Origin: Phyllosticta citribraziliensis
Lineage: Eukaryota
Assembly: GCF_038025025.1 (NCBI RefSeq)
Contig: NW_027117345.1
Location: forward strand, 744,001-808,000
Direction of reading: 5' to 3'
Length of the DNA: 64,000 bases
Shown: positions 13,358 through 49,165 of the stretch, piece by piece
Layout: each line of letters opens with the position of its first letter
Numbering within the stretch: the stretch's first letter is position 1
Notes under the pieces: model-generated
Seen by the model: the letters and a program-made list of their open reading frames with translations, nothing else
Told to the model about the DNA's origin: nothing
Databases searched by the model: none
Made by a program: the position numbers and the translations under genes

Positions 13358-14054
13358 CCTAGCCTCCTATAGACTATAGCTTATACTCTCTCTCTTACCT
13401 TTTATCCTTATTTCTTCTTACTTACTAGGGGATAGTAAAATAAGGAGTACCCCCCTATATATAGTACTACTAGCTAGTATAGTTTTTATAGCTTTTAATA
13501 GTTACTTTTAGTAATTATTATTCTTATTCTTAGCTATAGTTTTAGCTTAGATATAAGTAGAAGATTAGGCTAGTAAGAAAATAAGACTATAGATAGCTCT
13601 AGAATACTAGAAAGGTATAGTTCTATATAGTTTAGTAGTAATAATAATAGCTAATAAAAGTATAAGTAAATTTAGTATCTTTAGTAGTAATAGGAGGTTT
13701 TATACTATTTATATTTTTAGTAGTAGATTAGCTAGTTATATACCCCCTTTTATAGCTGCTTATTAAGAGGTAGTACTTATATAAATAAAGTCTTTTATAC
13801 TTAGTTAAACTATTATCTACTAAATACTTAGTTATTTATTTATTTATACTTATTATTTATACCTAAATCTTATACTGCTTAGATAATAAAGCAATGGCTA
13901 GATAGTAGCTTATTTTAGTTAGTTTAGTAGTTATTTTATTCCTATCCTATAGAGCCTACTTATTTACTACTAGTTACTATCTCTTATACCTCTTCTAGTA
14001 CTAGTATCTTAGCCGGCTAAGTAAGCGTACTAGTAAGTAGCTAGTCCCGCCTAC

Positions 14055-15020
14055 ACTAGTACTTAGAAGTAATAGTTATATAAGCCCTAGATAATTAGTA
14101 ACTATACTTATAGCTAGACCTAATATCTTACCTATAAGCTTATTACTAGGTTATTATTTAGTATAGAATATAGGAAGGATTCTATACTTTTTAATCTATA
14201 GGCTTCTATAATAATTACCTAGATTAGTCCTTTATATAATTTATTTATTAGCTTAGAGTATATATATTAGTTTAGTTTTATACTAGATCTAGGATATATA
14301 TTATTAAAGATTAGTAGAGTAAAGTTAGGTAGGTTATATTAGTATAGTACTAATTAATAAAATAATTCTTTAGCTAAATATTAGGATATTCTAATATAGC
14401 CTTAGGTAGCCTCTAAGCTAATTAAATCCTTACTACCTATTTAAATATTATCTTAGGTATTATAAACTAGTATAGCCTATCTATATATATCTACTATAGA
14501 TATACTACTACCTATAACTATAACTATAACTCTCCCCTAGACTAGTAGCTAGTTATCTAATAACTATACCTTACTATTATTACTATCTATAAATAATACT
14601 ACCTTATCCCTACTATAGCCTATTACTATAACTCCTATTAAGATCTTATATTATAGCTAACCTCTTAATAATAAACTAATAATCTCTCCTCTATAAGTTA
14701 GTATTAAATAAGTTAGCTAGCTATACTAGCTAATATATTATAAACTAGGCCTAATAAGGGAGCTCTCTTAGTTATAATACTACTACTAAGTACCTAAGGA
14801 TATTTCTATTATTAAGGAGACTATAAGTTAGCTTAATAAATAGAGCTATTCCTAGGTAAGCTTATTAGCTAATATAGTACTAATTATAGCTTTTAATATA
14901 GTCCTACTCTAATAATAGCTTAGTACTAAGGCCTACTCTATCTATACCTTTACTCCTATTAATAACTTAGAGTATACTAAACTTTATTTATTAGAGTCTA
15001 TCCTATAGGCTTTTAGTATT
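14055..15020 (+). mobile_element. Inverted internal fragment of family A
   Basis: Matches A3 ~31001-31968 in the same orientation and A2 ~17530-18495 as reverse complement; fused directly to the truncated end of A2. Confidence 0.85.
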
Positions 15021-26300: not shown

Positions 26301-26521
26301 ATTAATTAGCTAATAGTTAATAATTATAAGGTAGAGTAGTAGGAAGGATATAGAGCTATAGCTAACTTAGCCTATAGCTTACTTAGGTATATATACTACT
26401 ATATAACTAAGGTTTTAGCTGTTATAATAGGCGTACACGCGCCTATATAAGCACTAAGGCCAGCATAGATAAACCTAGCGTCACGCAGTTATAAGAAGTA
26501 CAAGCCTTACCTTAGGCAGTA

Positions 26522-26580
26522 ACTAGCTACTATAGCCTAGTACTAGCCACTATAGCCTAGTACTAGCCACTATAGCCCTA
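26522..26580 (+). repeat. 20-bp tandem repeat x3 in C LTR (actagccactatagcctagt)
   Basis: Directly visible; repeated in the 3' LTR at ~47449-47507. Confidence 0.85.
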
Positions 26581-29196
26581 GGTAGATATAGTATAATAGC
26601 CTATTAATACCTTACCTTTATAACTTACCTAATAATAACTAAGGACCCTTATATAAAGGATAAGAGGTAGAATAATATAAAGAGAAGGCTAGGGAATATA
26701 TAGGTAGTAAGTATCTTTTATCTTTTATTCTTTTAACTTATTAGATTTAATTAAGATATATATATATTCTCTAGTAGTTTACCTTTAGCCCTTACCTATA
26801 TAATAAGAAATCTATAAGTTATAATAGATATAAAAAATTATTCTAAGTTTTAGCTCTATCCTATTTCTTTACCTATAAAGGTATTATAATATTTAATCTA
26901 AATAATATTATATATAGCTATAATCTTATATAATACTATTTATTACTTTTCTCTAGTAAACCTAAGTTATCTTTATTAGGTATATTAGTATTATCTAAGG
27001 ACTAAGGAGTATTAAGTATATATTAACTATAGAAGTCTTTAGTTAAGGCTATAAGGTAGTATATAAATATCTAGAAGGTATCCTATTTATAACCTACTTA
27101 AGGGATATTTTAAGTAGAAGACTATAAAGATAGTATAGCTAAAAATAAAGCTAATATATCTAATACTACTAAAGGTATTAGTACTAGTCTATCTACCTAA
27201 TAAGACTTATATAAAGGAACTAAAGATTTATATAACTTTAGACCCTTATTAAATAATAATAAAAGGAGAGCTCCTCCTATTCTTCTTTATAATTTCTATA
27301 TAGTTATAGTAGTAGAGATAAAGGAATATACTTAAAACCTAGGACTAACTTATATAATATAAGCTCTAGTTATAGAGGTATTTATAAAGGTACTATATTT
27401 AGATATTAATTAATTTAAATCTAAGATTATATCCTTAAATAAGCCTTAAGTATAGTAGTAATTAAATTATATATAAAGGTAAAACTAGGCTCTTAAGTAA
27501 ATACTCTTAAACTATACTAATAGCCTAAGGGAAGCCTTAAAGGAAGGATATATTAGGCCCTCTTTATCTAACTAGAACTTAAGACCTATTACCCTTTTAT
27601 AAGATCCTTTTATTAATAGGGTAGTAAGGATTCTTAAACCTTTAATTATCTATATAAGGGAAACTACTATTAAAACCTCTATTTCTTCTTTTAATAAGAA
27701 ATATAAGAGTAGGAAGGTTCTTAATCCTTCTCTTTTTATTAATAGAGAAGACCCCTTATATAAATACTAGACTCTTCTTATATAAAATAAAATTAAATAA
27801 AATTATAATTACTTTATTAAAGGTATAGTAGAGGAGACTAAATAGAATATTATAAAATATATTATCTCCTATATTAGTAGAGAAGTCTTATAATACTTAA
27901 TTCCTTTTCTTACTTCTTATATAAAGGCTAATAAAATTACTCTAAATAAGAATATCTTTAAATTCCTAGATAATCTCCTCTAGAGTCTATATAAGTATAA
28001 GGATATAAAGAAGTAGTTATACTTACTTATATACTATATTCCTATAGACCTTTAGAAGTTTTAATCTAACTTTATATAATTAGCCTTAGATATAGATCTT
28101 CTCTAAGAATAATAGAAAGAGGATTTTTATAATATAATAGACCTACTCCTTTAAACCTATATAGTTACTATAGAGTAAGATAAGGATATTAACTTTTATA
28201 AGTACCTTTAAAGAGCCTATTCTATTACTTAAAGTCTTAGTAATTACTAATCTAATTATAGAAAACTAATATTTATCTTATATAAGGAATAAGCTAAGAA
28301 GAGATAATAGGAGAGAGTAAAGATAACTACCTTAGGTAGTATAAGTACTTTATCTTCTAGTTATACTTATATATAATCTATCTTAAGGGCTTCCTTATAT
28401 AATATAATATATAAAAGTAAAGTAGAACTCTATATAAAGATTAGACTATATAATTACTATAGCTAATTTAGCTATTTATAGAGATAATACCTATAACTAG
28501 AGATAAAGGTAATAGAGTTAGTAGAAGAAGAGAGTACTAAGAATATTTATATAAATATAGAAGATTAGTCCTTATTAGAAAATAATAAGACCTAGGTAAA
28601 GTTTCCTATCTTAGGTCTAAACTTAGAGTAATATATATTAAGGGTTCTTATATAAATCTTAATTACTTTATTAGAGGTATATCCTTTACTATATAAACCT
28701 TAATTATATCTAATAGCTATACCTTAGAAATTTATACCCTAGTTAATATTAGTACTAGTAGTATAAGTTTTATTTACCTTAAGCTACTACTAACTCTCTA
28801 GTCTATAGGTACTTTAAAAAAGAGAATAATAGATAATAGGCTTAATATTACTAAGTTTAACTAATATATAAATAAGAAAGTTAATTTTTACTTTTATCTT
28901 TAACTCTATTTCTAAGATTAAATAGTTTCTACTTATAATTTTATTTATAATATTAGCTAGAATAATATAATTCTTAGGTAATAGTTTTTTAACTAGTATA
29001 ATATTCTTCTAGACTATAAATAATATAAATTAGTCTAAAGATAGCTACTAGTTAACTAATCCTTTTAATATCTTTTATACCTACTAAAAGTCTCTATATA
29101 AAGTAATATACTATAGAAAGAATACTAAGTAGATATAGACTATAAAGATAAAAACTTTAATAAGTACCTTCTTCCCTTAGTATAGGTTATTAAGGG

Positions 29197-32100
29197 TGTT
29201 ACGCGCTGTAGCGCGCGTAGCTTATATTTCTTAGTATCTAGCATTTAGCATTTACTTCTTCTATGTACACTAGCTACTTCTAGTTAGCTTAAGAGTAGAT
29301 AGTTATTCTATATAGGCTATATAATAACTACTCTTACTCCTTACCTATTAATTATTAGTAGTCTATATTAATTTACTCTACTAGGTACTATAATACTATT
29401 AATAGGTCTCTTACTATTTATAAGAGGATAAGACTTATTATCTATCCCTTATTAATAAGTTTTCTTACTTTAATTATACCCTATAAGGTATTAGGTTAAA
29501 ATACTATAGTTTTAGATATACTAGAAATACTAGATATTATTATTTTTATAGTCTATAGCCTTAGATAAGGTATATAAGTAAGATTCTAGACTAAGATAGT
29601 CCTATTAGTAATTGAGATATAATATCTTATTATATTATATAGTTAATAACCTATATAATAGCTAAGAGTAGCTAGTCTACTAATAGTACTATACTATTAG
29701 CTACTCCTTAGATAATACTAATAGCTAGCTAGCTATCTTTAACTACTAGCCTATTATCTAGCTAACCTATTACCTCTTAGGGTAATAATAATAATAAATA
29801 ACCTACTACTACTACTCTAATAATAATATAGCTCTAGGAGTAGATCCTAGGGCTTATATAGGTAATTTATAATAGGGGTAATATACTAGGCTAAGAGGTC
29901 TAGTACTAATTTACTAATCCTAAGTACTAGTCTAATAATAGTATACTAGATAACTACTATATTTAGTATAGTAGTATTAAGGATAAGCTACTCTTTAATA
30001 GCTAGTTTTAGGGTAATATAGACTAAGCTATATATATCTACTCTTATCTAGCTAGTAAGGCTACTTTAGCTATTATTACTATTAATAATAATAATAGTAA
30101 GGATAAATCTAATAACCCTAATACCCTCTAGGCCTTATTAGATAGCTTATATAGTATTTTAGACTAATAAAGCTATACTATTATCTAGCTTATTACTATA
30201 GATTATATCTCTAGCTCTAGGGTAGCTTTTAAGATATTATTATATATATTCTATTTATTAGCTTATTATACTAGCTAGGATAGCTATATATCTAAAGATT
30301 AATTAATTTATAAGCTTTATAGACTACTCTATAATATTACTATTACTAATATTATAAAGGGCTATATAGAGCTATTAGATATCTTAGGCTAAGCTACTAA
30401 TATTAGCTAGGCTTATAAGTATAAGATAGTACTAATACTATAGATAACCCCCTACTATAAGGGTACCCTTTATATAGCTATACTAGCTAGGCCCTCTTAC
30501 TAGACTACTCCTACTATTAAAGGTACTACTAGTAGTATTAAATAGGAGTATTCTAATATACTAGGTAATTATAGCTATTAGTATTATAGTAGCCTAGGGT
30601 ACTAAATTAAGGACTACCCCTATAGTAAACCTATATATTACTAGCTAATTTATACCTATATAGCTACTAGTATAAAGGAGGTTACTAAGGAGTTTATAGA
30701 TATAGTTAAGAATAATCTAGGTATTATTATTATTAGTAGAGGTAATATTATAGATTTAGATAAGATATTAGGAAATAAGTAGCCTCCTATAAAACTACTA
30801 TAAGAGGTAATACCTATAAGATAGCTATTAGTTATTTAATATAATTAAGGAATAGAATTTCTAGTCCTTCTTATTACTCTTATACTATATATATCTATAT
30901 ATATCTTAATATTCTACTATAGCCTATTTATATCCTTATTAACTCTAGCTATACTAGTAGCCTATATATAAGCTAGTCTCTTAAGAGTAAACTTATTACT
31001 ACTAGTACTTAGAAGTAATAGTTATATAAGCCCTAGATAATTAGTAACTATACTTATAGCTAGACCTAATATCTTATCTATAAGCTTATAACTAGGTTAT
31101 TATTTAGCTTAGAATATAGGGAGGATTCTATACTTTTTAATTTATAGGCTTCTATAATAATTATCTAAATTAGTCCTTTATATAATTTATTTATTAGCTT
31201 TAAGTATATATACTAGTTTAGTTTTATACTAAATCTAGGCTATATATTATTAAAGATTAGTAGAGTAAAGTTAGGTAGATTATATTAGTATAATATTAAT
31301 TTAAAAGATAATTTTCTAGCTAAATCTTAAGATATTTTAGTTTAGTATTAGGTAGCCTTTAAACTAATTAAACCCTTACTACCTACTTAAATATTATCTT
31401 AGATATTATAATCTAGTATAGTCTACCTATCTATATCTATAGCTAGCCTATTACTACTTATAACTATAACTATAACTCTTCTCTAGACTAGTAGCTAGTT
31501 ATCTAATAACTACTCCTTACTACTATTACTATCTATAAATAATATTACCTTATCCCTACTATAGCCTACTACTATAACTCCTATTAAGATCTTATATTAT
31601 AGTAAACCTCTCTATAATAACTTACTAATCTCTCCTATATATATTAGTACTAAATAAGTTAGCTAGCTATACTAGTTAATATATTATAAGGTAGGCCTAC
31701 TAAGGGAGCTCTCTTAATTATAATACTACTACTAAGTACCTAAAGATATTTCTATTATTAAGGAGACTATAAGTTAGCTTAATAAATAGAGTTAATCCTA
31801 GGTAAGCTTATTAGCTAATATAGTATTAATTATAGCTTTTAATATAGTCCTACTCTAATAATAGCTTAGTACTAAAGCTTATTCTATCTATATCTTTACT
31901 CCTATTAATAATTTAGAGTATACTAAACTTTATTTATTAGAGCCTATCTTATAAGCCTTTAGTACTAGTAGTAATAAACCTTACCTCTATTATACTATCC
32001 CTTATAAGTATTATAACCTTTTAGATATATTTTATAATACTAACCTACTCCTTTAAGCCTATTTATAGACTAACTTCTATATAGAACTAAAGGATAGTAC

Positions 32101-33457
32101 TAAATCTAAAGACCTTAGTTATATACTACTCTAGTATACTAATAATATCTAATTAGCTAAGATTAAGTAGTATATATAGAAGGGTATTAATCTTAGTATA
32201 TTAGAGCCTAGTAAGGTAGGTATAGCCTTATCTATTTTACTTATAGCTAAGTCTAATAGTAGTATTTATTTCTATATTAATTATTATAAGCTTAATAAAC
32301 TTATAAAGAAGGACTACTATCCCCTTCTATTATTAGATAAGATAATTAGCTAGATAAGAGGTACTAAATATATTACTAAGCTTAATATTAAGTAGGCTTT
32401 CTACTAAATCTATATTATAGACTAGTAGACTAAGGACCTACTTATATTCTAGACCTATTATAGTACCTATAAGTACTTAGTTATACCCTTTAGTATAGCT
32501 AATAGCCCTAGTACCTAGTAATAGTTAATTAATAAGTACCTATTCTACTATCTTAGTAAGTATACTACTATATATCTTAATAATATCCTTATTTATAGCT
32601 AAATACTTATAGATTACTAATAGTATATTAGGGAGGTCCTTACTTAGCTATATAAGTATAGTTTATAAGTTAATATTAATAAGTATAAGTTCTATATCTA
32701 GGAAACCTAGTTTTTAGGTATTATTATCTCTACTAATAGTATTTATATAGACCCCTCTAAGATTAATATAATTATATCTTAGGAGTAGCCTATAATAGTA
32801 AAATAGGTCTAGTCCTTTCTTAGTACTACTAATTTTTACTAGTAATTTATTAAGGACTATAGTAAGACTACTAGGCTATTAATATAACTAATATATAAGG
32901 GTACTAATTAGTAGTAGACTAATATTAAATAATAGTTATTTAATAGTCTTAAGTATACCCTTATAATAGTACTAGTCCTTATCTACTTTAACCTATCTTA
33001 TAAGATAGTTATAGAAATAGACTTATCTAATTAGACTAATAGTAGCCTTCTCTCCTAGTATAATAATAAGTAATATCTTTACCCTATTATATACTACTCT
33101 AAGACTATAGTACTAGCTAAGCTTAATTATACTATCTATAATAAGGAGCTCCTAGCTATTATTTATATCTTAGAGTTATAGGAGCCTAATCTTAAGGCCT
33201 ATTAAATACTATTTATAGTATTTACTATAATTAAGTAGCTAACTTATTATTAAGCCTACTAGGCTAAACTCCTCTTAGAATATAACTTTAAGATTATATA
33301 TTACCCTAGCTATACTAATATTAAGGCTAATATACTTACTTATTATCCTTAGGATACCCCTACTACTAATAACCCCTAGTAGTAAATATAATACTAAACC
33401 CTACTCCTAGCTAGTAAGCTCTTAGCTAGTATATATAAGGACTAGAAGGTAGCCCCT

Positions 33458-33491
<34 letters not shown>

Positions 33492-35245
33492 TATTTATAC
33501 TCTAGTAATTACTTATAGCTAATACTATAGATAATACTAAAATAAATAACTAGAGGTATTATACTAGTAAGCTAGACTTACCCTTTACTATTAATAGGTA
33601 GTAGAATATCTTTATAAATAGCTACCTTATTATATCTACTAAACTCTAGCTACTCCTTATCTATTATATCTATAAGTAGCTACTTACTAGCTACTCTAGC
33701 TAAACTTAGCTATATAACCTCCTAGTACCTTAATTTTAGTTTCCTTACCTTATCTTACTTATATCCTAAGTTATAGATAACTATCTAAATTATATCTATA
33801 TTTATAAAGCTTACCTAGTTATTTTAGGCTAGCTATAGCTACTACCTATTCTATTATAGCTATAGTAGTATATTACTATAGACTTTATTAGCCTATTATT
33901 ATATAGTAAGGGTATAGATACTATCCTAGTTATTTATAACTATTTTAGTAAAGTATAATACTTTATTACTATAAATACTATAAATAATAGGACTATAGCT
34001 AAGGCTATAGCTTATATACTTATAGACTATATCTTTACTATATATAGTTTCCCTCTCTCTATTATCTTAGACTATAGTAACTAGTTTATCTCTTACCTAT
34101 AGGAGGGCCTTACTTATATTATTAGTATTAGCCTAAAGCTATCTATTAGCTATTATCCTTAAACTAATAGCTAGACTAAATAAGTTAATTAGGACCTTAA
34201 GAACTACTTAAAATAGTTTATTAGGTTCTATTAAGATAATTAGTAACTACTACTATCTATTACCTAGTTTATAGCTAATAGTATACTATATAAGAGCCTT
34301 AATAGCTACTCCCCTTTTTATATTTATTATAGCTATAAGCTATAATTTAATTTTAATACTAAAGCTACTATTTATAGTATCTATAGACTAATTATAGATA
34401 CCTATTCTATATAACTATAAACTATATAAGCTATTACCTATACTATATAGTAAGTATAGGATAAAACTAAGTATAGTCTTATAGTTATATAATAGTAAAT
34501 AGCTATCTAAGCTAACTACTAGTATTAGGATTATATTATTAAACTAGGTAAATATATATATATCTATATAGACTATATATATATGCTCTATAGCTATCCT
34601 ACTATACTTAATTTTTATAATAATAGTCTATATTAAGTTACTAATATATATAGTAACTAGGCTATACTATAACTACCTACTAGTTTATATACCTATAATA
34701 AATTTAATATCTTATACCTTATTATTACTAGTAATAACCTATTACCTAGCTAATAACTAGCTAATAGCCTAGCCTTATAAGATAATAAGAATAAGAATAA
34801 GGATACTAATTAGGAAGTAGAGGAGATTATAGGCTATTAGATACTAGCTAATAGGAGGCTCTAGTTTAGGGTAAACTAGACTAATTATCTACTAGACTAA
34901 GTATTTTATAATACTAATAATAGTAAGTTTAATAATACTTATAATATTATCTTATACTATTATAAAAGGTACCTAAACCTTTACCTACTAGCTAGTTAGA
35001 CTAGTAACTAAGTAATAAGGATATTACTTACTAGGAGGGGGGGTAGTATTATATACTATAGTATATATAGCTTATATTTCTTAGTATCTAGTATTTAGTA
35101 TTTACTTCTTCTATATATACTAGCCCCTTCTAGTTAGCTTAAGAGTAGATAGTCATTCTATATAGGCTATATAATAACTACTCTTACTCCTTACCTATTA
35201 ATTATTAGTAGTCTGCATTAATTCGCTCTACTAGGTGCTATAATA
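29197..35245 (+). mobile_element. Element A3, full length, 199-bp LTRs, non-matching flanks
   Basis: LTRs 29197-29395 and 35047-35245; PPT (agga + G-run + tag) at ~35033-35046; RT YLNNILIYS at ~32573-32600; chromodomain (WEVEEI.G....FRVNW..Y) at ~34810-34900; near reverse complement of A1; flanks AAGGG and CTATA. Confidence 0.95.
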
Positions 35246-36637
35246 CTATATAACTACCTATCCTAGTATTATAAAGATATAAAAACTCCTTAAGTAATAT
35301 TACTACTAGCTAGCTATAAATTATATAATTAATATTTATAGATAGGGATACTATATCTACTATTAAATAAAGGAGTTCTATAATAAAGACCTAGGCCTTT
35401 TATAACCCCTAGAGATTCCTACTTAACCCTAGTAATACTTAGCTATAGATTTTAAAGAGATACCTAAGGATTAGAAAGGCTATAATATAATCCTTATTAT
35501 TATAGACTAGTTAAGTTAAAGAACCTTTAGCTTACCTTATATAAAGAAGATTAATATTAAAGGAGTTTCTAGGCTCTTTTATAAATATATCTACTATATT
35601 TATAGAAACCTAGAGTTTATCCTTTTAGACTAAGGCCCTTAGTTTATCTTAGCTTTTATAAATAAACTATATAAGCTAACTAGTATAGAATAGTATTTTA
35701 ACTTATCTTATTACTCTTAAACTAATAGTATTACTAAGATTATTAATTAGTATCTTATATAAAGATTAAGACCCTTTATTAACTACTTTTAGAATAATTA
35801 GTCTAATCTTCTACTATTAATAGACCTTATATAAGTAATACTTTCTTATAAAGCTACTAGACTTTTATCTTTTAAGATTAAATTAGGATATTCCCTATAA
35901 ATATATTATAACTAGTAATAATAAATTAAGACTCCCTAGTAACTAGAAAAGATAGCTTATATAGTAGTATAAATACTATAAAAGAGAAGATAAGAAGCTT
36001 TTAATTTTACTAAGAACCTTATTCTTAAATCCTAAGAGTATATATATTAATAAGCTAATAAGTACTATTATATACTAGACTTTATAGTTAGAGATTATAT
36101 CTATATTAAAAAAATAGGATGGTCTACTAATTAGCTAAACCTTAAATTAGACTTCCCTAATACTAGACCTTTTAAGATTATAGGAATAGAAGGACCCTTC
36201 TATATCCTTAATCTTCCCTTATATATAAAGATAGTTAACCTTTTCTATACTAATAGACTCTATAAAGCTAAAATAGAATAGCTTCCTAGTTAGGAATATA
36301 CTAAACTAGAACCTAAAATTATTTAAGATAAGCCTAAGTAGGAAGTAGACTATATTTAAGCTAGCTAAGTCTTATATAAAAAGCTTTAATACTAAGTCTA
36401 ATAGACTAGATATAACTAAGATAATTAGTAGTATAATATAAGTTCTTTTAATAGTATACTATAGAAAATTAAAGAGTTTTACTCTTTATACCTAGCTATA
36501 GTAGGACTACTAAAAAATCTAGAAAAATAGAAGATTACCTTCCTCTAAGAAGAACTATAGATAGAAATAGAAAGTAATAGTAAAATAAGTTACTTAGGCC
36601 TAAAGTAAATATTATAAAGATATAGAAAGTAGACTAA

Positions 36638-38217
36638 TTAGTTTACTATCTACCCTTATATAAATACTATTAACCTTAACTTCTACTCTCTAGTCTCTCC
36701 TTTTTACTACTTATTTCCTACTATCCCTTTCTTTATTTTCTCTATTTACTTCTTCCCTTTTCCCTTTCCCTTCTTCTTATTATAACTATTATTATATAAG
36801 ATAGTTTCCTCTAGCTCCTCTAGCTTATTAGGTAAGAGGTCCTACTTAGCTAAAGCCTAATTAGTATAATCTTTAGGTATAGCTTAGTTATATAAACCTA
36901 GAAACTCTCCTATATAAATCTTATCTTTATACCTCTTATAACAGGTAGGCAGCTTTATACCCTTTAAGTTACTAATAGTATAGTTAAGGTTACCTATACT
37001 CTAAAGGCAGTTAGTATAGTAGCCCTATAAGAAACTAGGTAGGTAGTAATAACTAATAAATATATAAGTATTAGTATTATTATAATACTTAGTATAGCTA
37101 ATAGGATTATTAATTCTAGTATACTAGATAAGAAAAGTATTATATAAGCTAGTATAGGTTTTAACTAATAAGTAGTTAAATTAGTAAGTAGAAACTATAA
37201 TATATAAGTAAGGTATACTATTACCTAGAGCTAAGATATACTTAGTATACTCTTATACTTTAGGACTACCTAGATAAGCCTATATAGTCAGTTAAGATTC
37301 CTAGTATTAGTAAAGTAAACTTACTTATATAATACTCTCTATATTCTTATAGGGAATATAAAGTATTAACTTAAAGTCCTACTTAATAGGCGCCTTATTA
37401 GAACTAACTAGTAATACTATAATATAGATCTTACTATTACTACTATTATATAAACCTATAGGTACTAAGTACTCAGCTACTAGGACCTAATAAGCTATAG
37501 GATTATAATAATAGTGTGTATAAATAGGCTCCTTATCTTCTTCCTCTAAGATAGGCTATATAACAGTAAACTAGTAATAATATAGTATAATAGTAAGAGA
37601 AGTAGACTAGCTAGTAGCAGGCTATATAGCTAATAGTAATAAACCTTATATAATAACTAATAATACTAATTATATAGAACCTAATACTATAGAATAGTAC
37701 TAGTAAAGTAATAAGCCTATAGCTATTCCTAGCTAAATAAGTAAAGCCTAGCCTAAATATATATTTATATAAGTGTCCTCCTCTATAGTTATATTAGTTA
37801 GTAAGATAGGATAATAAAGCAGTAAAATCTAGATATATAAAGCTACTTAGTAACCTAGATAACAATTAGTAATAGTTTTAAAGAGATAGACTTTACTTAC
37901 CTTATATATAATAGTTCTAATAGATACTACTAGCTAAAATAGCTCTCTAAGTAAGTAGTAACTATAATAGATTATAAATAATACTATATAATAATAACTT
38001 AAGTAGATAAGTCTTATATAATAGTAAGGAATCCTAATAGACTAGACTATAATAAGTAATAGGCAGAGCTAGTATAGCTAGTATAGTAGGTATAGAACCT
38101 TCTTTATTACTCTTAGTAGAGTATAGCTCCTTTAAGCCTATATATAATAGTTAGTTTACTAGATTATAGCTAATTTAGACTAGATAATAATATACTTTAG
38201 TAGGGAACTCTAGATAT
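36638..38217 (-). pseudogene. RIP-inactivated antisense spliced gene in C1 encoding a DUF3716-like Cys6 domain
   Basis: Minus-strand 37150-36975 de-RIPs to NAFLIQ.TG....GC.KC......F.SCR.LPGF..GCCANCLW......CT (one intact TGC codon); introns GTAAGT...CTGAC..TAG at 37324-37280 and GTAAGT...CTAAT..TAG at 37900-37855; basic KKGKGKGK tail at ~36750-36776. Start and stop inferred. Confidence 0.72.
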
Positions 38218-38489
38218 AGCTAAGATAGATAGTAACCTTCTATAGGTTATATAGTAATAGAAGATAGTAATAGAGAAAGATAGTTAGATAATAAAGCTAG
38301 ACTAATAATTATACTTTATAACTATATAGAATACTTAAATTACTAAATTACTACTATTATATATTATAAGGCTATACCTATATAAGCACCTATAGCTACT
38401 AATTCCTATAATTTTAGCTTCTCTTTAGGGGGGGCATATTATAATAGGTATATATATACCTATATAAGTACTAAGGCTAGTATAGATAA

Positions 38490-41400
38490 TGTTATAGGCT
38501 AATAGGTCACCTGATTAGTAGGCTGGTTCTAAGTGACTATCTATCTAATACTAAGGTATATAAGTATAGGAGATAAAGCTAAGTAAGAAGGCTATATAAT
38601 AAGGTATAAGTTAAATTAGTAGGGAGTCTACTTAGGAGTATTAATTATAAGAAAATAAAGATAGCTATTTATAGTATTTATATAATAAGATCCTTTTTAT
38701 ATTCTATTATCTAACTTATCTTAGGAATTATAATAGAAGAAAGGTAGGTACTATAAGAGAAGAGATCTTATCTTAATCCTAAATTATATAGTAGTTTACT
38801 AGCTTATTAGTAGTAATATACTTCTTAAAATTAACTACTTAGCTAAGTCCCTACTATAGGTATAGGAGGTTCTATTCTTATTTCTATTATTATATTAGTA
38901 ATATATATATAGGTATTAGGGTTAAATTATCTAAGTAGCTATAGCTCTTAAGGAGTTAGGTAACTTTAGTATATATAGCTTATAGTTATAGCTAGTAGTT
39001 ATAGTATAGGTATACCTAGTACTTAATACTAAGTAGTATTTAATATAATTATAGGTTTTTTTACTAACCTATAATATTACCCCCCCCTAGGTTTAGCCTA
39101 AGGTATACCTATAAGTAAGAGTAGTTATCTTATTTAGGTATTATACCTTAGTACCTTAGTAGGTATAGATTAGGTTTAAGTATTTAACTCTATATAGGGA
39201 GTTAGTTTATCTTAAAGCTTTTATATATCTAGGATACTAGAGTAGGTACTCTAGTAGGTATACCTATAGCTATACCTATAGGTATAAGTCTAGTATAAAG
39301 GCTTTCTACCTCTATTTCTAGCTCTAATCTTTATTACTATACTTATTATACCCTACCTCTTATCTTCTTTAATAAGTTTACCCTTAGCCTATAGTATAGT
39401 CTTAACTAATTAATAATCTAAAGCCTTTATTATAACTAGCTTTACCCTAATTAATTATCCTATAGGTTCTAGTAGTTCTAGTTATTCTAGTAATATAAAT
39501 AGTAGTTTATAAGGTAAGTAAAACCTTATCCTTAAGGTTTAAGTATTTAGTACTAATAATTTATATAGCTAGTAGTAATAGTTCCTCTAATAGCTCTTTA
39601 GAGTTTATACCTTTATATCCTTTAATACCTACTCCTACTAGGTAGCCTTATACTACTAGTCCTATATATACTCTTACTTACTTAGTTACTTTATCTATAT
39701 ATACTATACTATATAACTATACTACTCCTTCTAGTAGTATTTCTACTACTACTTATTATTATCCTTAGGCTTATTAATCTAAGTATATATATCCTAGTAT
39801 TAGTCCTTCCTATAGCTCTATTAGTCTAGTTATAGGCCCTTCTAATTATTTATCTTTACCTTATTACCTTTACTATTACCCCTTACCTATATATAAAGGA
39901 AAGGGAAGAGCTAAGGAAGAGTTTAGTTTTAAGAGTTTTAGTAGGGGTTCTTTAAACTTATCTTTACTAGAACCTAAACTTAAAGGATTTAATAAAGGTA
40001 GTATATATATCCTATACTTAGGGGAGGTTTAGGCTACTTTAAATAAGGTAAGTAATCTATCTATTCCTTTAGCCTTAAGTTATACTAATAGAATTCTAGG
40101 CTCTAGGAAGTAATATTACCTATAGTATATATAAGGAGCTCCTATTATTACCCTATAGCTATATTAGTATTTTTATAATTCCCTCTATTTTAATAAATAA
40201 CCTAGTATATTATTATTTATAAGCCTCTATTATAGCTATTTAGTTTACTAGTATCCTATAGGCTATAGATTATAAGTATTATATATATATAATACTACTA
40301 GGTAGTATTTACTATCTATTTATTAGTTATTACTAGGTCCCTAGCTCCTTTAGTAGTAGCTATAGTAACTATAAGTAGGATAATAATACTTTCTTTTATA
40401 GTATATATAATCCTAATAACTATATTTATAATAGCTAGTATAATCTATTAGGTAAGGTCCCTAATTATTTAGATAACTTTATAGCTAGTCTTAGTAGTTT
40501 ATCCTTAAAGGATAAGCCTATACTAGATACTAGAGCTTCTTTATCTAAAGAGACTAAGGCTAGCCCTACTAGTCTATTTATTAATATACCTTTACCTATA
40601 TATATATTAACTATTCTATCTACTAGTCCTATTTCTACTATATTTACTACTTCTTTACCTAGTAGTACTACTCTTCCTAAGTAGGAGGTAATAGTTCTAT
40701 ATATACCTATAGAACTTCCTAGTTATATAGCTCCTATAGTCCCCTTAATAGCCTACTCTTCTTTATCCTTACCTATACCTAGTAAGTATATTCCTTCTAA
40801 TAAGCTAGGCTCTTCTTCTTTATCTAGTATATCTTCTTTATCTAATAAGTCTAGTAGTAGTAGTACTAGCCTACTAGCTCTAGTATATATAGCTTTTCTA
40901 TCTACTCCTAGTTCTTCTACTACTATACTACTATAGATTTCTAGTCTTAAGATATCTTCCTTATCTCCCTTATTATTACTATTACCTACTCCTATAGTAC
41001 CTATTTATACCTATACCTATATCTAGCTTATATATAGTTCTAGTACCCCTTATAGTTTCCTAGTTAGTTATTTTAATAATAATACCTTTATAGACTACTA
41101 GGGTATACCTCTACTATTATATAGTTTAGGTAATTAGCTTTAGGCTAAGGCCCTTACCTATTAGTCTAAGGCTAAGAGTTTATAGGAGGGGGAGGAGGAA
41201 GAGCCTTAATAGTCTATTTTCTTAGTATATAGTAGGTTTCTCCTAGGGGTATCTTACTTTTTCTAGTAGTATTAGAGGGTATAATTTTAGTTAGTAGCTT
41301 AGAGAGTAGGCTTATTATCCTTTATAGTATCTTTATAATCTAGCTTATATACTACTATATTCTTCTAGTCTTATAAGTATTTTAATAGTCCTAGTATCTT

Positions 41401-44400
41401 AGGAAACTTAGTATAGTACTCTTTAATTTAATTAGAGATACTAACTATATCTAAGGTCTTATACTATATATTATCTTAGTTATATCCCTTCTACTAAACT
41501 TAATACTTTAGGGTACCTTATTTTACCTTACTATTATATATAAAGTTAACTTTATATTCTTCTTAATTCTAGTAGATAGTTAGAGGTTTAAGAATAGGGA
41601 CCTAGCCTAATAAAGAGGGATAAGCCTTTTATAAGTAGTCTATATAGAAGAGGTTTATAACCTTAGTATATACTAGGAGGTCTAGCTTATAGGAGTATCT
41701 CTTTTTCTTAATAATATAGTAGGGCCCTTAGTTCTAGGTATTAAGCTTAATACTAGGTTAGTTAGTACTTATACCTTATATAAAGATATATACCTTATTA
41801 CCTTTCTTAAAGTTAGGTTTTTACTAGAATTAATTTATAGCTTATACTATTTATTCCTAGATAAGACCTAGCTATTATTTAGCCTACTATATACTTTCTT
41901 ATATATATTTAGTAAATCTTTCTATAGTAATATAAGATAGTTTCTCTATAAGTTCTAGATATATAGTATATTTCTCCTAATTAAATAGGAAACTAGGCTA
42001 GTAGCTAAAGATTAACTTATAGGGGGATATACCTATAGATTTATATAGGAGTATAACTTATATAAAGTCTAGTACTAGGAGCCTTTCTACCTAGTTATCC
42101 TAAAAATAGTTAATATATAATTATAGGTATAGGTTAATAACCTAGTTTATAATTTTAGTAGTACTATTTATCTAAGAGTAGTAGGCTAAGGTAAGCTTCT
42201 ATTTAACTCCTATAATTATATATAGCTTATTCTAGAAATCTAAAATAAATTAGGGTCCTTAGTTAGAAACTACTAATTTAGGTATACTATATATTCTCTA
42301 GATATACTAGTAGTATAGTTAGGTAATACCCTTAGTATTAATTACCTTATAGTAGGGAAGGCTAAAGGTTTACTTATTTAACTAATCTATAAATATTAAA
42401 ATAATATTATATCTAGATTTATCCTTAGATATCTCCTTAAAGTCTATAGTAATATACTACTATACCTAGTCTAGGATTAGGAGGGGTTAGAGTAGTTCTA
42501 GCTTTTTATTATAGAAGTTTATATTTCTTTAGTATATATAGTAGGCTTTTATAATATTATTAATTTATTAAGTAATATCTAGCTAGTAGTAGTATCTTCT
42601 TACTACTTCCTAAGTTTTATTTTATCTAGTATATATAAATAAGGGTAATAAGTAAATTTTATTTACTAGCTCTATATATAATATATCTTACTTAGGAACT
42701 ATAAGTTACTCTTTAAAGAAGAGGTAGTTATTATAGAAGGTTTAATCCTTCTTATTAGGTTTATAGGCTTATATATACTATTCTTCTAATAAGGTAGACT
42801 TTTTATCTACTTCTAGTACTCTATTTAGGATTAGGAATAAGCTACTAAAAGTAATATTAAAGGTATTTAGGTTAAGGATCTAGTCTTTAGCTACTAGTTA
42901 TATTATATACCTAGTAATACTCTTATTCTTCTAAATTTATAGCTCTTCTTATTTCTAAATAAGAGTATTAATAATAATATTATCTCTTCCTAGCCTATAT
43001 ATAAATTTAATATAGTATTTAGTAAGTTTCTCTAACTATTAGGCTTATTAAGTATTAAGTTAGTATTTAATAGAGAAGTATTTAAGTACCTAGTAATTAG
43101 TAATAGCTATAAATAGCTAATTTAGGCCTAGGAGTATACTTCTCTATTCTTTAAATCTATATATAATAGTAAGGAACTCCTTATTATAGATTTTATACTA
43201 GAGTTCTATATCTAATATTAATTTAAAGTAGAAAGTTATAGGTCTCTATTCTCTAGTTTCTTAATATTATAATAGGACTCTAGCTACTACTCTATTATTT
43301 ATATCTATTTCTATATATATAACTAGTCTAGAATTATAATATACTATTATTAAGGAGCTAGTTATTATCTTCTTTAGTTATTAGAATATCTAGACCTTAA
43401 AATTATTAAGGGTATAAAATTTCTATTTAAAGTAGAGTTTCTCTAGTAGTCTAGCTATTCTATTATATTTAGGGATAAAGTTTTAGTAGAAATTATAAAA
43501 CCTTAGAAAGGCTTAAAGTCCTTTAAGGGTTATTAGTAGGTTCTATTTATATATAGTAGATATCTTATCTAGATCTATAGAAATTCTATTAGTAGAGATA
43601 ATATATCCTAAAAACTTTATATAGATAATAGAGAATTTAGATTTTTTAATATCTACCTATAAATTAATATATTATAGTTATTTAAGTACCTTCTTAACCT
43701 ACTACTTATATTCTTAAGGGTTCTTTAAGATAATAAGTAGGTTATTATCTATAAAAGTAATAATAAAATTATCTAGGTATAGTATAAGTTCTTTATTAAT
43801 AAAGTACTAGAATAAGGTAGGACTATTATAGAGCCTAAAGAGGAGTATAATATACTTAAAATATCTATACTATATATAGAAGGTTATTAGGTCCTAGGAT
43901 TCTAGATCTATAAGAATTTAGTAAAATACTTATTAAATATCTAGCTTAATATATACTTTACCTTTAGTAATTCTTTAGAGAATTTCTTAGATAAGAGGTA
44001 GAAGGTATAGGTCTTTCTTAGTATAGGTATTTAAATATTAGTAATTTATATAGAATCTCTAGTTACTACTACCCTTCTAGACTATAAGAATTAGTAATAT
44101 ATATAGTATAGTACTTTTAACTATAAAGCCTTTTTTAAGATTTTTAAGGATATACTTCTTTATAGCTTATAGTTATTCTATTATTATTCTATATAAGGGG
44201 CTTAGAGAGAGGGAAAAGGGTTTATTTCTATTAATAATAATCTTATAATTAATACCTAGCTAGTATAGGGGTAGGGTATCTAATTATTATTTAAAAAAGA
44301 TATCTTAGTATTCCTTATACTATAGTAGGAGGTATTTATTAAGGAATTATATAGTTTCTTTATCTTCTTTAAGTAAAGTAAGTTCTTAAATTCTTATATT

Positions 44401-47394
44401 AACTTCTTAAAGAGTAATAACTTAGACTTCTAAAATTTTATTTTATATAAAAAGAGAGTTTAAAGGAATAAATAAAGAGTTAATTCTTAAATTATCTATT
44501 TTCTCTTTTATATCTTTTTAGACTTTTTCTCTTCTTTTTAGGTCTTTTTAATATATTTCTAAGATTTTTCCTTATTAGTATACTATTAAATAAACTAGGA
44601 GAAGTATTTTTTTATATATAGATAGAGCTTTATTATCTTAGCTAAAAAGCTTATATTTTTTATAATCTAGTAAAAGATTATTCTAAGAAAAGAAATATTT
44701 CCTAAATATAAGATTATTATAGCTAATTATTATAATAAAGGCCTATATTTTATATATTTTTTAGTTAAAGGTAATAGTAAGGAAATAGGTATACTTTAAT
44801 TTAATAGCTACTTATCTATTAAATCTTAAGGCCTTAAGTATACCCCTAGTAATTTTATATTTATATATACTAAGGGTATTAAGGTATTATATAAATTATA
44901 GATAGATAAAGTAGGTCTTAAGAGTACTAATATTAATTAGTACTTTAATATAGAGAGCTTTCTTATTCTTATAGATCTTAGTAGGTATAGTAAAGGCTTA
45001 TCCTCCTATAAAATTATTAATTCTAATATTTATATCTTTAAACTAGAGGGTCTTAATTATTATCTCTAAAATAGATCTAGAGTTTAGAGAAGGGAGTTTT
45101 CTAAGTTACTACTCTTAAAGAATTTTTCTAGTTTAAGTATTAGCTTATCTTCTTTAGGCTATATATCTATTTCTTTAATAGAAACTATATAATTTTATAC
45201 CTAGTATCTCTTTTTCCTATAATTATAGTAGGTATCCTTTCTATTATTATTAATAGGCTTCTTAGGTTCCTTAGATTTAGTAGTATATAAGGAAGTACTA
45301 GTATAACTAGATTTCTTAGAAGTAATAGAGCTAATACTAGCCTTCTTTCTAGAATATTCCTCTTATTATTATTTAGCTTTAGATTTACTTACTTATATAT
45401 ATAAAGCTTAATAGTCCTTTAGGTTATATATAATAGTAGATACCTTATTAATATAGTCCTAGAATTTAATATAGTTATTATCCTTATAGAGTATTATATA
45501 TATTTTTAATTAAGGGTTTAAAGAGGTATAAAACTCTTCCTTCTATTAAGACTAGGGTAGGTCTATATTAAGGGCTAGAGCTATAAATTTAGTAATATAT
45601 AATTAGAAATTATTATTAATATAGAAGTAGAGGTATTAAAGGCTATCCTTAGCTTTCTTTCTTTTAAAGGGATTATTAAACTTATCCCCTAAAAAGGTAT
45701 ATAAATTAGTATTAGTAATAAGTAATTATTCTTTTTTTTTAGTATTAAGGAATAGAAGAAGGTAATTAGCTACTTTATTATTTATTCTAAATATAATATA
45801 TACTATAATTACTATCTTAGTATCTATAGGGTTATTTAAAATAAATTAATTATAGTTAGTCTAAATTTTATTCTTAACTTAATAGAGCTAGATCTAGTAC
45901 TTAGGTACTTTTCTATTTATAAGGAGAGGTAGATCTAGGATTTTAATATAGTACTTCTAAATAGGCTAGCTAATAGTAGTATAAACTAAATTATAGGAGA
46001 ATATAGTTTCTTTATAAGATAAGTATTTATAGTAGGTTTATTCTTTAATAATTTTATCTATTATATAGACTAATAGGATTATTAAAATCTTATTCCTATA
46101 GTAGTCTATAAACTATTTATAATAGGAGATTACTCCTTCTATAGTAGCTACTTAATACTTCTTATTAAAGAGTAATTTAATAACCTCTACCTTATAAGTT
46201 TTATTATACTAACTCTTACTAGCCTCCTTAGATCTTAAAAGTTTATTAAAGAGTTTAAGAATAACTTCTATATAGGGCCCCTATTCTATTACTATCTTAA
46301 GTAGCTTTAAATTATCTAAATTAACTTTATAAATTTATAAAGGGATAAGATTCTCCTCTAGTTTTAAAGAAGAATTATTAAGGTTTCCTTCTATTTATAT
46401 AGAAGGAATTAAAGGAGTTATAAAAGTTAATCTTATTACTCTATCCTCTTAACTAGATTCTAGATTAGTTATAATTAACTAATTCTTAATTTAGTCTAAT
46501 CTATATAGTATAACCTTATTATTTATAAGGGTTTTAAAGTAGGAGACTACCTATATTCTCTTTATATACTAATCTCTATTTCTTATATAAAGTAGCTCTA
46601 GCTATATACCTAAGGGTCCTCTAGACTTATAGGGGTATCTACTAGTATTTATACTATAAGACTTAGAATAGGGCTTAGCTAACTAGTATAGGTATAATTC
46701 TTAGAATATATATCTAGTATTTTTAGTAGGGGATATTTTAGACCTTTCTAAGTATTAGAAGAGTTAGTATAAGAAAAGATATAGTAACTTAATAATCTTT
46801 ATTTTTCTATTATAGGCTAATAGATTATCTAATTAATAGGCTAGTTTAAAATAATTATCTATCTAATACTAAGGTATATAAGTATAGGAGATAAAGCTAA
46901 ATAAGAAGGCTATATAATAAGGTATAAGTTAAATTAATAGGGAGTCTACTTAGGAGTATTAATTATAAGAAAATAAAGATAGCTATCTATAGTATTTATA
47001 TAATAAGATCCTTTTTATATTTTATTACCTAACTTATCTTAAGAATTATAATAGAAAGAAGGTAGGTACTATAAGAGAAGAGACCTTATTTTAATCTTAA
47101 ATTATATAGTAGTTTACTAGCTTATTAGTAGTAATATACTTTTTAAAACTAACTACTTAGCTAAGTCCCTATTATAGGTATAGGAGGTTCTATTCTTATT
47201 TCTATTATTATATTAGTAATATATATATAGGTATTAGGGTTAAAGTATCTAAGTAGCTATAGCTCTTAAGGAGTTAGGTAACTTTAGTATATATAGCTTA
47301 TAGTTATAGCTAGTAGTTATAGTATAGGTATACCTAGTACTTAATACTAAGTAGTATTTAATATAATTATAGGTTTTTTTACTAACCTATAATA
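38490..47394 (-). mobile_element. Chromovirus element D, full length (8.9 kb), 587-bp LTRs, inserted in the C1 3' LTR
   Basis: LTRs 38490-39076 and 46808-47394; TSD GATAA at 38485-38489 and 47395-47399; PPT complement (C-run) from 39080; RT relic YLDNFII at ~43760-43780; chromodomain (EEY.V.FI....LKY.V.WKGY) at ~41480-41565. Confidence 0.95.
39432..41209 (+). pseudogene. RIP-inactivated antisense spliced gene in D encoding a DUF3716-like Cys6 domain (~556 aa)
   Basis: Exons 39432-39513, 39569-40047 and 40100-41209 join in frame (1671 nt); introns GTAAGT...TACTAAT...TAG of 55 and 52 nt; de-RIPed MASFTPIN start, KGKGRA motif, and AIQ..G......C..C.........PF.SCR.VPGSFGG.CGNCKWD....CS at 40235-40402; Ser/Pro-rich tail. 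Confidence 0.8.
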
Positions 47395-47837
47395 GATAAA
47401 CCTAGTATTATATAGTTATAAGAAGTATAAGCCTTACCTTAGGTAGTAACTAGCTACTATAGCCTAGTACTAGCTACTATAGCCTAATACTAGCTACTAT
47501 AGCCCTAGGTAGATATAGTATAATAGCCTATTAATACCTTACCTTTATAACTTACCTAATAATAACTAAGGACCCTTATATAAAGGATAAGAGGTAGAAT
47601 AGTATAAAGAGAAGGCTAGGGAATATATAGGTAGTAAGTATCTTTTATATTTTATTCTTTTAACTTATTAGATTTAATTAAGATATATATATATTTTCTA
47701 GTAGTTTACCTTTAGCCCTTACCTGCGTAATAAGAAATCTATAAGTTATAATATTAGCTAACCCTATACCTTAGTATCCTTATAGGCCTTATACCTACTC
47801 TACTACCTATCTACTCTATCTATATCGATTTATCTTA

Positions 47838-48797
47838 GATACTATAAAATATAAGTAGTATATGCCGTGTCGTATAATAGTTAGTAATAATCTTTAAGTA
47901 AGATAGAGTCTCTTACTATAGTACTACTCTATATAATAGTCCTAGTAGATACTACTAGTAGGAATAGCTCTCTAAGTAAGTAGTAATTAAGATAGATTAT
48001 AAATAATACTATATAATAGGATAGTAGTATATAAGGATTTCTAACTACTAGTATAGCTTATAGCTATACCTATAGGAGATAAGAGACTTAAAGAGGTATT
48101 AGGGTTAGTTTCTATCTTATATAGCTCTTTTAAGCCTTTATATAACTATTAGTTTACTAGATTATACCTAATTTAGCTAGGATAATTATATATTTTAGTA
48201 GGGGGCCTAGGATATAGCTAAGATAGATAGTAACCTTTTATAAGTTATATAGTAATTAGAAGTAGTAATAGAGAAAGATAATATAGTAATAAAGCTAGAC
48301 TAATAATTATACTTTATAACTATATAGAATACCTAAATTACTAAATAGTACTACTATATATTATAAGTCCATACCTATATAAGCGCCTATAGCTACTAAT
48401 TCTTATAATTTTAGCTTCTCTTTAGGGGGGGGGTATATTATAATAGGTATTATATACCTATATAAATACTAAAACTAGTATAGATAAACCTAGTATTATA
48501 TAGTTATAAAATACTAGCTATAGCTTAGGCTAATACTAGCTACTATAGCTTTAGGCTAATATATTATAATAACCTATTAATACCTTACCTTTAGATTAAT
48601 CTAATATTAACTATTAACCCTTATATAAGGGATAAGAGATAAGTAGATATAAAGGAAAGGTTAAGAAATAGATAGGAAGTAAGTATCTTTTATATTCTAT
48701 TCTTTTAACTTATTTAATAAAGATATATATATATATATTCTCTAGTAGTTTACCTTTAGCCCTAACCTATAAAATAAGAAACTTATAAGTTATAATA
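47838..48797 (+). mobile_element. 3' remnant of a diverged C-family element (C2) with 3' LTR 48436-48797
   Basis: 47880-48435 aligns with C1 ~37865-38436; G-run PPT at 48424-48433; LTR begins and ends like the C1 LTR but is shorter (362 bp). Confidence 0.85.
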
Positions 48798-49165
48798 TAT
48801 ATATACTTATATAGGTATATCTACTAGTATACTTACTACCTACTATTATAATAGTAAACTATAGACTTAGTATTAACTAAGTAGAAATATATACTTAGTA
48901 TAGAGTACTATCTTATAGCTATAGTTTTTCTATAACCTCTTTTTAGTTTCTAATTTTTTAAACTAGTAATATAAGACTTATAGAACTTAGTAGTCTTAAT
49001 ACTTAAGAATATACTTTACTAAGTAACAGTGCCTAGTATTATAGCATGTGAAGATAGAAGAGCTAGAGGAACATAGATAGGTATTAGAACATAAGATACT
49101 AAATTCTTTACGAACATGTACAACTCAATCCATCCAACTAACCACATCGACTAAACCCCTCGACC

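Follow-up and report, generated by a model that had tools for sequence, protein, structure and literature searches.

The window analysed here is a stretch of 64,000 nucleotides from Phyllosticta citribraziliensis (RefSeq assembly GCF_038025025.1, contig NW_027117345.1, positions 744,001 to 808,000 of the forward strand). It contains element D, a complete long terminal repeat (LTR) retrotransposon of the Ty3/Gypsy type, inserted on the minus strand and heavily mutated by repeat-induced point mutation (RIP). Within D, antisense to pol, there appears to sit the relic of a gene with a spliced, three-exon layout. Before it was killed by RIP, the element probably carried this gene as its own protein-coding accessory gene of the DUF3716 family (PF12511), placed between pol and the polypurine tract (PPT). 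Self-BLAST of the window found one copy of family D, with one pair of direct repeats (38492-39076 vs 46810-47394, 95.6% over 585 bp), and reading the flanks moved the start of each repeat back by 2 bp, to TG or TA. The parts of D are the following.

38485..38489, no strand: left copy of the target-site duplication GATAA; identical 5 bases flank both LTRs.
38490..39076, minus strand: 3' LTR of D, from self-BLAST and the reading of its ends.
39080..39090, minus strand: PPT-like G-run, eight G on the minus strand directly before the 3' LTR.
41372..46700, minus strand: gag-pol of D, heavily degraded, with approximate limits, from Pfam RNase H matches and similarity to reverse transcriptase (RT).
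46808..47394, minus strand: 5' LTR of D, from self-BLAST and the reading of its ends.
47395..47399, no strand: right copy of the target-site duplication GATAA.

The pol of D matches RT_RNaseH_2 (2.5e-10) and RT_RNaseH (7.4e-8) in one of the three minus-strand frames, at about 43015-43386, and the stretch 44319-43147 shows RT similarity to intact Gypsy pol genes of two metagenome loci described below (L019 and L039). About 640 codons lie downstream of RNase H, consistent with the Gypsy gene order. By its LTR pair, its GATAA duplication, its minus-strand pol and its gene order, D is thus a complete Ty3/Gypsy-type element inserted on the minus strand. At about 41404-41570 a stretch resembles a chromodomain by eye only, and the integrase-chromo part of L019 and L039 gave nothing at E<=0.01 against the pol ends of D and of E, its relative in the window (tblastn). 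The DNA to the right of the 5' LTR (47392-47753) recurs at 26465-26826 (95% identity) and at 48512-48798 (82-83%); D was thus inserted into another repeat family.

The region of D between pol and the PPT, from 39077 to about 41370, holds the antisense gene. Its parts are given here with the matches to an annotated homologue (P0003) that is presented below.

39432..39513, plus strand: exon 1 (82 nt), with ATA at 39432 as a mutated ATG; P0003 match, 1 stop in 27 codons.
39514..39568, plus strand: intron 1 (55 nt), GTAAGT..TACTAAT..TATAG; signals read, P0003 continuous across the junction.
39569..40047, plus strand: exon 2 (479 nt), Ser/Tyr-rich, with KGKGRA at 39896-39913; 4 stops in 159 codons, P0003 match.
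40048..40099, plus strand: intron 2 (52 nt, phase 0), GTAAGT..TACTAAT..TCTAG; signals read, P0003 collinear across the junction.
40100..40936, plus strand: exon 3, to the likely stop TAG at 40934-40936; P0003 matches, and its C-terminus lies there.
40937..41209, plus strand: extension of the reading frame in the initial annotation, probably 3' untranslated region; its 91 codons include 7 stops and lie past the C-terminus of P0003.

The exon frames join exactly over both introns, which fall exactly at the frame changes. A strict pattern for such introns has seven plus-strand and four minus-strand occurrences in the 49-kb RIPed part of the window, and two of these 11 are the introns of the D gene. 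Exon 3 has 15 in-frame stops in 370 codons, which is the minimum of the background (mean 47.1, sd 13.7; 95,782 windows in six frames), a minimum common to three places, D exon 3 among them. Thirteen of these 15 stops are TAG, the expected product of CAG and TGG under RIP. The initial annotation, made from the sequence of the window, had described three exons joined in frame over two canonical introns, antisense to pol within the element, and this layout holds: the signals are there, the frames join, the homologue is collinear, and the LTRs and the target duplication enclose a minus-strand pol and a plus-strand gene. The KGKGRA segment it mentioned is also in place. The end of the gene changes, since the homologue ends at the codon equal to the window's TAG at 40934-40936. 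We place the 3' end at 40936 as the likely one, with 41209 as a possibility; the frame to 41209 as coding sequence was rejected because it needs seven more stops read through in 91 codons. With this end the gene has about 465 codons, and its start codon lies 356 nt inside the element from the 3' LTR edge. Its position between pol and the PPT and 3' LTR, on the opposite strand, is that of the antisense accessory genes of the brtn and aORF-3R type.

The exon-3 read-through (stops as X) had a single match among 1.84 billion representative proteins (phmmer, E 3.6e-16), an uncharacterized annotated protein of P. citribraziliensis of 333 residues (XP_066651715.1, here P0003), to which exon 3 is 47% identical over 189 residues. 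This protein starts with a Met opposite the ATA at 39432. In tblastn, its residues 1-26 are 65% identical to 39432-39509, residues 27-89 align to 39565-39747 in exon 2, and residues 130-169 and 159-333 align to 40121-40240 and 40415-40933 (E 2e-33). P0003 runs uninterrupted across both proposed junctions and is collinear across intron 2, where its '..LSR|SPSG..' stands opposite '..LNK|ALGS..' in the window. The Met and the collinearity mean that the start, both introns and the frame of the D gene are corroborated by an independent gene model. The evidence for the introns thus consists of the splice signals and of collinearity with an annotated protein; there were no joints at the two introns among the contig pieces of four public runs (X1, X2, X3 and X6, none of them recorded as RNA) that we placed on 38400-43000. 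X6 may be an RNA run, and the shares of the runs were at most 0.14. In word-indexed protein searches, the exon-3 read-through returned nothing at E<=10 among 8000 candidates and P0003 returned only itself. The middle of exon 2 (39667-39853) differs between copies: an X3 contig has 184 other letters for these 187 nt, and the homologue is about 55 residues shorter than the D gene there. The flank of the Cys-rich core that had been called Arg-rich is better described otherwise, since in the less-mutated homologue Ser is abundant (24%) and Arg falls outside the eight commonest residues; we dropped the label.

How the core of the gene can be read depends on RIP. Bases 1-49000 of the window are RIP-type AT-rich DNA with a GC content of 0.21-0.30, and the remainder has 50-62% GC. 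The RIP indices of D are 1.76 for TpA/ApT and 0.01 for (CpA+TpG)/(ApC+GpT), compared with 0.53 and 1.26 in the GC-rich part of the window, and the trinucleotide shares are 0.02% for TGA, 6.3% for TAA and 6.4% for TAG. Practically all TpG and CpA were turned to TpA. As a consequence, Cys (TGY) and Trp codons are lost, and Gln and Trp codons read as stops. Because Cys codons became Tyr and Trp and Gln codons became TAG, the copy of D in the window makes no protein.

40208..40414, plus strand: RIP-degraded DUF3716-like six-Cys core, from a RIP-aware profile alignment, a codon-class profile and the codon table.

Several lines of evidence indicate that the ancestor of this core was a DUF3716 domain. 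At 40271-40396, the Cys motif matches 17 of 23 pattern positions, compared with 11 of 23 at the next best place. The pattern quoted in the initial annotation can thus be located, although its spacing is slightly off in the N-terminal half, and natural domains show the rest of it, i.e., L-I-Q-S-R-G, C-x2-C, P-F-x-x-C and the last Cys. We back-translated the ten best-defined motif residues to a degenerate pattern and scanned it over public contigs; no reversed (deRIPed) sequence was used as search input. The pattern matched 41 metagenome loci and no viral contig, and an alignment of 60 natural DUF3716 proteins (A1) likewise found no relatives among viral contigs. All 27 open reading frames (ORFs) scanned from the metagenome loci belong to PF12511 (25.6-62.1 bits vs a cut-off of 22). 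The motif is therefore a DUF3716 signature, and the family named in the initial annotation is the right one.

Two scores relate the degraded core to intact domains. The first takes for each codon its best pre-RIP meaning (max-over-options) over the six frames of the RIPed 49 kb, and places 40232-40501 first of 2166 windows (120.6; mean 44.4, sd 8.9), on a high background. The second is a codon-class profile of 33 natural domains, in which codons are written as purine/pyrimidine classes, so that it is insensitive to RIP and to chosen reversals. With it D is first of 97,564 positions, at 34.0 bits (mean -72.4, sd 12.9; best unrelated position -11.4), and it keeps this rank when the ten motif columns are dropped (12.9 bits; next unrelated position 2.1). 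The core of D thus has a RIP-proof similarity to bona fide PF12511 members. At the codon level, the six conserved Cys columns read TAT or TAC in D and the Trp column of C-G-N-C-K-W reads TAG. This is the expected TpG>TpA outcome of TGY and TGG, His, Arg or Tyr ancestors being equally allowed. The raw core stays below the PF12511 gathering cut-off (22 bits), as expected for a RIP-destroyed copy, and we file it as a relic descended from PF12511, since by the standard of Pfam itself it does not qualify as a member.

The window also holds a second, diverged element related to D, element E, which appears to have the same antisense layout.

35274..36630, plus strand: pol 3' fragment of element E, from blastn to D pol and a purine/pyrimidine alignment.
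36965..37165, minus strand: second DUF3716-like core, antisense to E pol, second in rank in both the RIP-aware and the codon-class tests.
36749..36778, minus strand: K/G basic run after the E core, in the raw reading.

The pol fragment of E is truncated at 35253 by a copy of another LTR element, with LTRs of 168 bp. It is 68.8% identical to D between 35297-35856 and 42595-42036 (blastn), and its purine/pyrimidine identity to D 42618-41260 is 0.72-0.81, an alignment that is credible over pol only and is noise beyond it. The E core lies directly downstream of this fragment and antisense to it. It takes second place among the 2166 windows of the RIP-aware score (99.5) and again among the 97,564 positions of the codon-class profile (0.8 bits vs -11.4 for the best unrelated position); its raw reading has the run F-I-S-Y-Y in common with D and retains one intact Cys codon, at the fifth position (..N-C-x-W). 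Since E has a paralogous core, placed and oriented as in D, the gene is not confined to one copy. On the minus strand, an intron-like pattern (37900-37855, GTAAGT..CTAAT..YAG) straddles the edge of the repeat 37859-38489, which is about 81% like 47874-48487; because of this, the first exon of the E gene might lie in an LTR.

Other copies are found among the contig pieces of the public runs, and those of X1, X2 and X3 cover the D gene region. X2 and X6 have pieces with 0 differences from the window, which probably come from the window's organism, and further X2 pieces, which show 9-31 differences over 40208-40877, represent other copies. All 30 bins are represented in X3, whose changes (215 A>G and 199 T>C vs 32 G>A and 34 C>T) indicate less-mutated copies. 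The gene region is therefore present in related elements, i.e., in E, in the pieces of X1-X3, and in the intact loci L014, L019 and L039.

These intact loci allow the neighbourhood of DUF3716 genes to be examined where RIP has not destroyed it. We fetched 21 metagenome loci of at least 2.9 kb and scanned the ORFs of at least 200 residues in 19 of them (leaving out L021 and L031). Since the loci were picked by a motif from a transposon-borne gene, they are not an unbiased survey, and the number of independent families is smaller than that of the loci, several of which are near-duplicates. In 17 of the 19 loci, a mobile-element-type ORF adjoins the DUF3716 ORF; no such ORF of at least 200 residues was found beside DUF3716 in L017 and L035. 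The neighbours are of four kinds.

L014, L019, L039: Ty3/Gypsy pol (RVT_1, RNase H and integrase; chromo in two).
L003, L009, L020: Ty1/Copia pol (RVT_2).
L001, L004, L010, L012, L016, L029, L040: hAT transposase (Dimer_Tnp_hAT).
L006, L022, L036, L041: long ORF with OrsD, mostly with DEAD/Helicase_C.

In L019 and L014 the DUF3716 ORF is convergent with the Gypsy pol and lies 200 and 336 nt from its end, respectively. L039 is related to L019 (75-79% in pol) and has the DUF3716 gene upstream of gag, a gene order that fits a contig permuted through a shared LTR. Convergence is also seen in L003, L009 and five hAT loci, and in L012 and L016 the gene is co-directional with the transposase. The OrsD (PF12013) ORFs have 798-1556 residues, with OrsD N-terminal and DEAD/Helicase_C in three of the four; they represent an unclassified helicase gene, possibly mobile or telomere-linked. 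A tree of 31 DUF3716 rows does not cluster by transposon class: 16 of its 28 inner branches are unresolved, and the class label takes 11 changes vs 12.3 in shuffles, being as low in 29 of 200 shuffles. As built from these rows, the tree decides nothing between single and repeated capture. At E<=1e-5, 103 of 377 candidates are relatives of the Gypsy-borne L019 protein. PF12511 is present in every one of them, and proteins of Botrytis, Blastomyces, Histoplasma, Coccidioides and Fusarium are among them. The Botrytis proteins are 60-61% identical to it and are encoded on contigs of 4.1 and 6.7 kb.

The natural proteins show how the DUF3716 core is conserved. In A1 the core is 40-77% identical among the 60 relatives, with L-I-Q, G, four Cys, F, K and W invariant, and the spacing C-x2-C-x9-17-C-x10-C-x2-C-x8-C is kept in 56 of them. 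The AlphaFold model of a DUF3716 protein is confident, with a pLDDT of 83.8, above 90 over residues 30-120; in a protein atlas the highest score was 0.77, which is too low to be useful. The Zn(II)2Cys6 cluster has the pattern C-x2-C-x6-C-x5-12-C-x2-C-x6-8-C. Membership in that class was considered and rejected, because the spacing of the relatives differs and HAP1 was reached only at a Foldseek probability of 0.06-0.08 with E>5. The tails that follow the core are rich in acidic residues and Ser and contain V/I/L hydrophobic cores (in 23 of 55 tails vs 5.0 +/- 2.1 in shuffled ones), which we take to resemble SUMO-interaction motifs. Many natural DUF3716 proteins end in a P-I-V-L-like motif. Leads on function come from a few relatives. 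According to the passages of PMC10776026 on it, PSC58 of F. graminearum is a DUF3716 protein needed for ascogenous hyphae and is called the orthologue of N. crassa NCU05718, a protein that is described in a passage of PMC4650311 as binding double-stranded TTAGGG directly and as having no annotated DNA-binding domain. This binding is the sole lead from experiments on the role of the domain. In Zymoseptoria tritici, the DNA transposon REP9 holds two DUF3716 genes, and expression of REP9-1 affects pycnidia, as stated in the part of PMC8232023 concerned.

The RIPed part of the window contains further elements and frames. The LTR element with 168-bp LTRs is present in three copies (2340-8382, 15019-20304 and 29204-35253), which are 92-98% alike and show no DUF3716-like signal. 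Three further RIPed frames are as stop-poor as the D gene, 12302-13411, 24927-26036 and 10577-11686, all on the plus strand, with 15, 15 and 19 stops per 370 codons, respectively; none has a Pfam match at E<=1. Intron-like patterns lie near such plus-strand frames, at 12099-12147 and 25225-25282. The minus strand is stop-poor too at 24654-25763, and one of this frame and 24927-26036 may be the shadow of the other.

Several results weigh against an element-encoded DUF3716 gene in D. The most direct concern the homologue. P0003 is missing the 58 codons of 40241-40414, and these coincide exactly with the Cys-rich core; the protein has no Pfam match, and A1 shows no profile similarity to it (hhalign). 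Read from its sequence, the P0003 copy could thus be one from which the core is absent: either the annotation spliced out a damaged stretch or the copy is truly without it. Others concern the core itself. The Pfam match that the initial annotation had led one to expect does not appear in the raw read-through of 40202-41101 (stops as X; 0 families at E<=10). Once the ten columns used for fetching are taken out, D drops to second place in the max-over-options score (78.2, against 77.3 for an unrelated window); the 12.9 bits that D retains in the codon-class profile without its motif columns are not significant by the log-odds bound, and the E core is then outside the top 8. The intact Gypsy-borne genes have about 175 codons and no intron in their coding part, whereas the D form is long and spliced; judged by sequence, the long, spliced, Ser-rich form appears to be a variant of the natural DUF3716 proteins. 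No listed contig piece bridges the junction of pol and the gene. Finally, the model of the DUF3716 protein had 0 matches at E<=0.001 among solved structures (Foldseek) and 0 at Z>=2 among 48,161 chains (VIA-align). Zinc and DNA binding are thus putative.

How strongly do these points count, and what else could explain the locus? If there were no gene, the open frame would come from strand composition and the motif from choosing among RIP reversals. There is room for such choice, since a RIPed codon has up to eight ancestors and the background of the max-over-options score is accordingly high, and two other frames in the window are equally stop-poor. However, an annotated protein matches all three exons, the introns fall where the frame changes, and the codon-class test, in which no reversal has to be chosen, separates D from the best unrelated position by 45 bits. 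The homologue matches and the codon-class test have already largely refuted this explanation, and we give it hardly any credence. A gene could also be there as a passive passenger that came from the host or from another transposon and landed in, or was captured by, this one lineage. DUF3716 genes adjoin four kinds of mobile-element ORFs and so move between contexts, their tree does not cluster by transposon class, and P0003 is without the core. Yet the LTRs and the target duplication enclose the gene, there was no sign of a nested element in the form of a transposase or terminal repeats, and the same layout recurs in the sister element E and in the intact contigs L014 and L019. A mere passenger is unlikely.

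A third possibility accepts the gene and moves its effect to the RNA: convergent transcription and double-stranded RNA would damp the element through RNA interference or chromatin, and the protein would be dispensable. The convergence on pol with a short spacer, 200-336 nt in L014, L019, L003 and L009, agrees with this, and such a mechanism is raised for plant antisense ORFs in passages of PMC7264820. It accounts poorly for the conservation of the protein, with its invariant Cys, Trp and Gln columns in the 60 relatives, and for the occurrence of the same protein beside DNA transposons, co-directional with the transposase in L012 and L016. We thus regard an effect through antisense transcription as rather improbable. 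An accessory gene encoded by the element, as proposed in the initial annotation, remains the probable explanation, given its place within the LTRs and the target duplication and the layout it shares with E, L014 and L019.

On this explanation, the live gene would have encoded a Ser-rich N-terminal part, a DUF3716 domain (C-x2-C ... C-x10-C-x2-C-x8-C) and a Ser-rich tail. Introns that are antisense to the genomic RNA are not spliced from the RNA that is copied. The gene being antisense, both introns would therefore be inherited by each new copy. In a live element, a promoter at or near the 3' LTR would transcribe the gene, convergent on pol. The protein, which has basic runs, would enter the nucleus, where the DUF3716 module may act as a zinc-dependent DNA binder, in trans for the element. 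It may tether or target the element, regulate it, or blunt host silencing, roles that would benefit the element and would go beyond those of an antisense RNA alone.

A broader reading is more tentative, and we consider it possible but not likely. DUF3716 might be a six-Cys DNA-binding module that serves as a shared, exchangeable 'transposon helper' gene in at least four unrelated kinds of Ascomycete elements, usually convergent, and that acts on host chromatin or defence for the element that carries it. The kinds would be Ty3/Gypsy, Ty1/Copia, hAT and the OrsD-helicase ORFs, with IS3EU added from the literature, and the window would hold two RIP-killed examples. Such help could consist, e.g., in tethering to repeat or telomere-like DNA or in countering silencing in the sexual phase; the transposon-borne proteins have an acidic tail resembling SUMO-interaction motifs. 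The locus alone is modest, a dead copy in a RIPed isochore, and the interest lies in the wider pattern. Hardly any work exists on the accessory genes of fungal transposons. If retrotransposons and DNA transposons do carry one small, well-folded, fungus-specific Cys-rich protein, it probably serves a common need, such as chromatin access, targeting or escape from genome defence, and would open the relation of fungal elements to their hosts to testing.

Comparison with known systems shows which part of this is new. HBZ of HTLV-1, a bZIP protein transcribed from the 3' LTR, is encoded by a spliced antisense gene located at the 3' end of a retroelement. The D gene, likened to it in the initial annotation, shares the antisense orientation, the predicted splicing and the position at the 3' end of a retroelement; no further likeness is supported, as no bZIP was found by Pfam in the window read-through or in P0003, where the only recognisable module is Cys-rich, and the ATG lies inside the element. 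The antisense architecture in fungal Gypsy elements is already known: a 2011 paper by Zhao et al. in Virology (417:248) reportedly describes the antisense gene brtn in Boty-like elements. The claim of novelty must therefore be narrowed to the DUF3716 identity of the antisense gene and its spread across transposon classes, which appear undescribed; a full-text literature search, whose coverage did not extend to bioRxiv supplements, gave no link of DUF3716 or PF12511 to retrotransposons or to several transposon classes.

The gene brtn, from Boty-like Ty3/Gypsy elements of Botrytis cinerea, is, as far as its mentions in PMC8365987 and PMC4227169 go, likewise an extra gene opposite gag-pol in a fungal Gypsy-type element. 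Set beside these mentions, the D gene is long, spliced and RIP-dead. In plants, the aORF-3R of Ty3/Gypsy elements has the same position between pol and the 3' LTR and the same antisense orientation, and it too may regulate the element; the passages on it in PMC7264820 mention no DUF3716. REP9-1 and REP9-2 of Z. tritici are, like the D gene, DUF3716 accessory genes inside a fungal transposon, and the relevant part of PMC8232023 gives them no signal peptide and no known function. REP9 is described there as a class II DNA transposon of the IS3EU type, whereas D is an LTR retrotransposon, and changed expression of REP9-1 affects pycnidia formation, whereas the D gene is known here from its sequence. 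PSC58 and, presumably, through the orthology call, NCU05718 belong to the same domain family, as far as the passages of PMC10776026 tell; they are single-copy host genes, whereas the gene of D is borne by the element.

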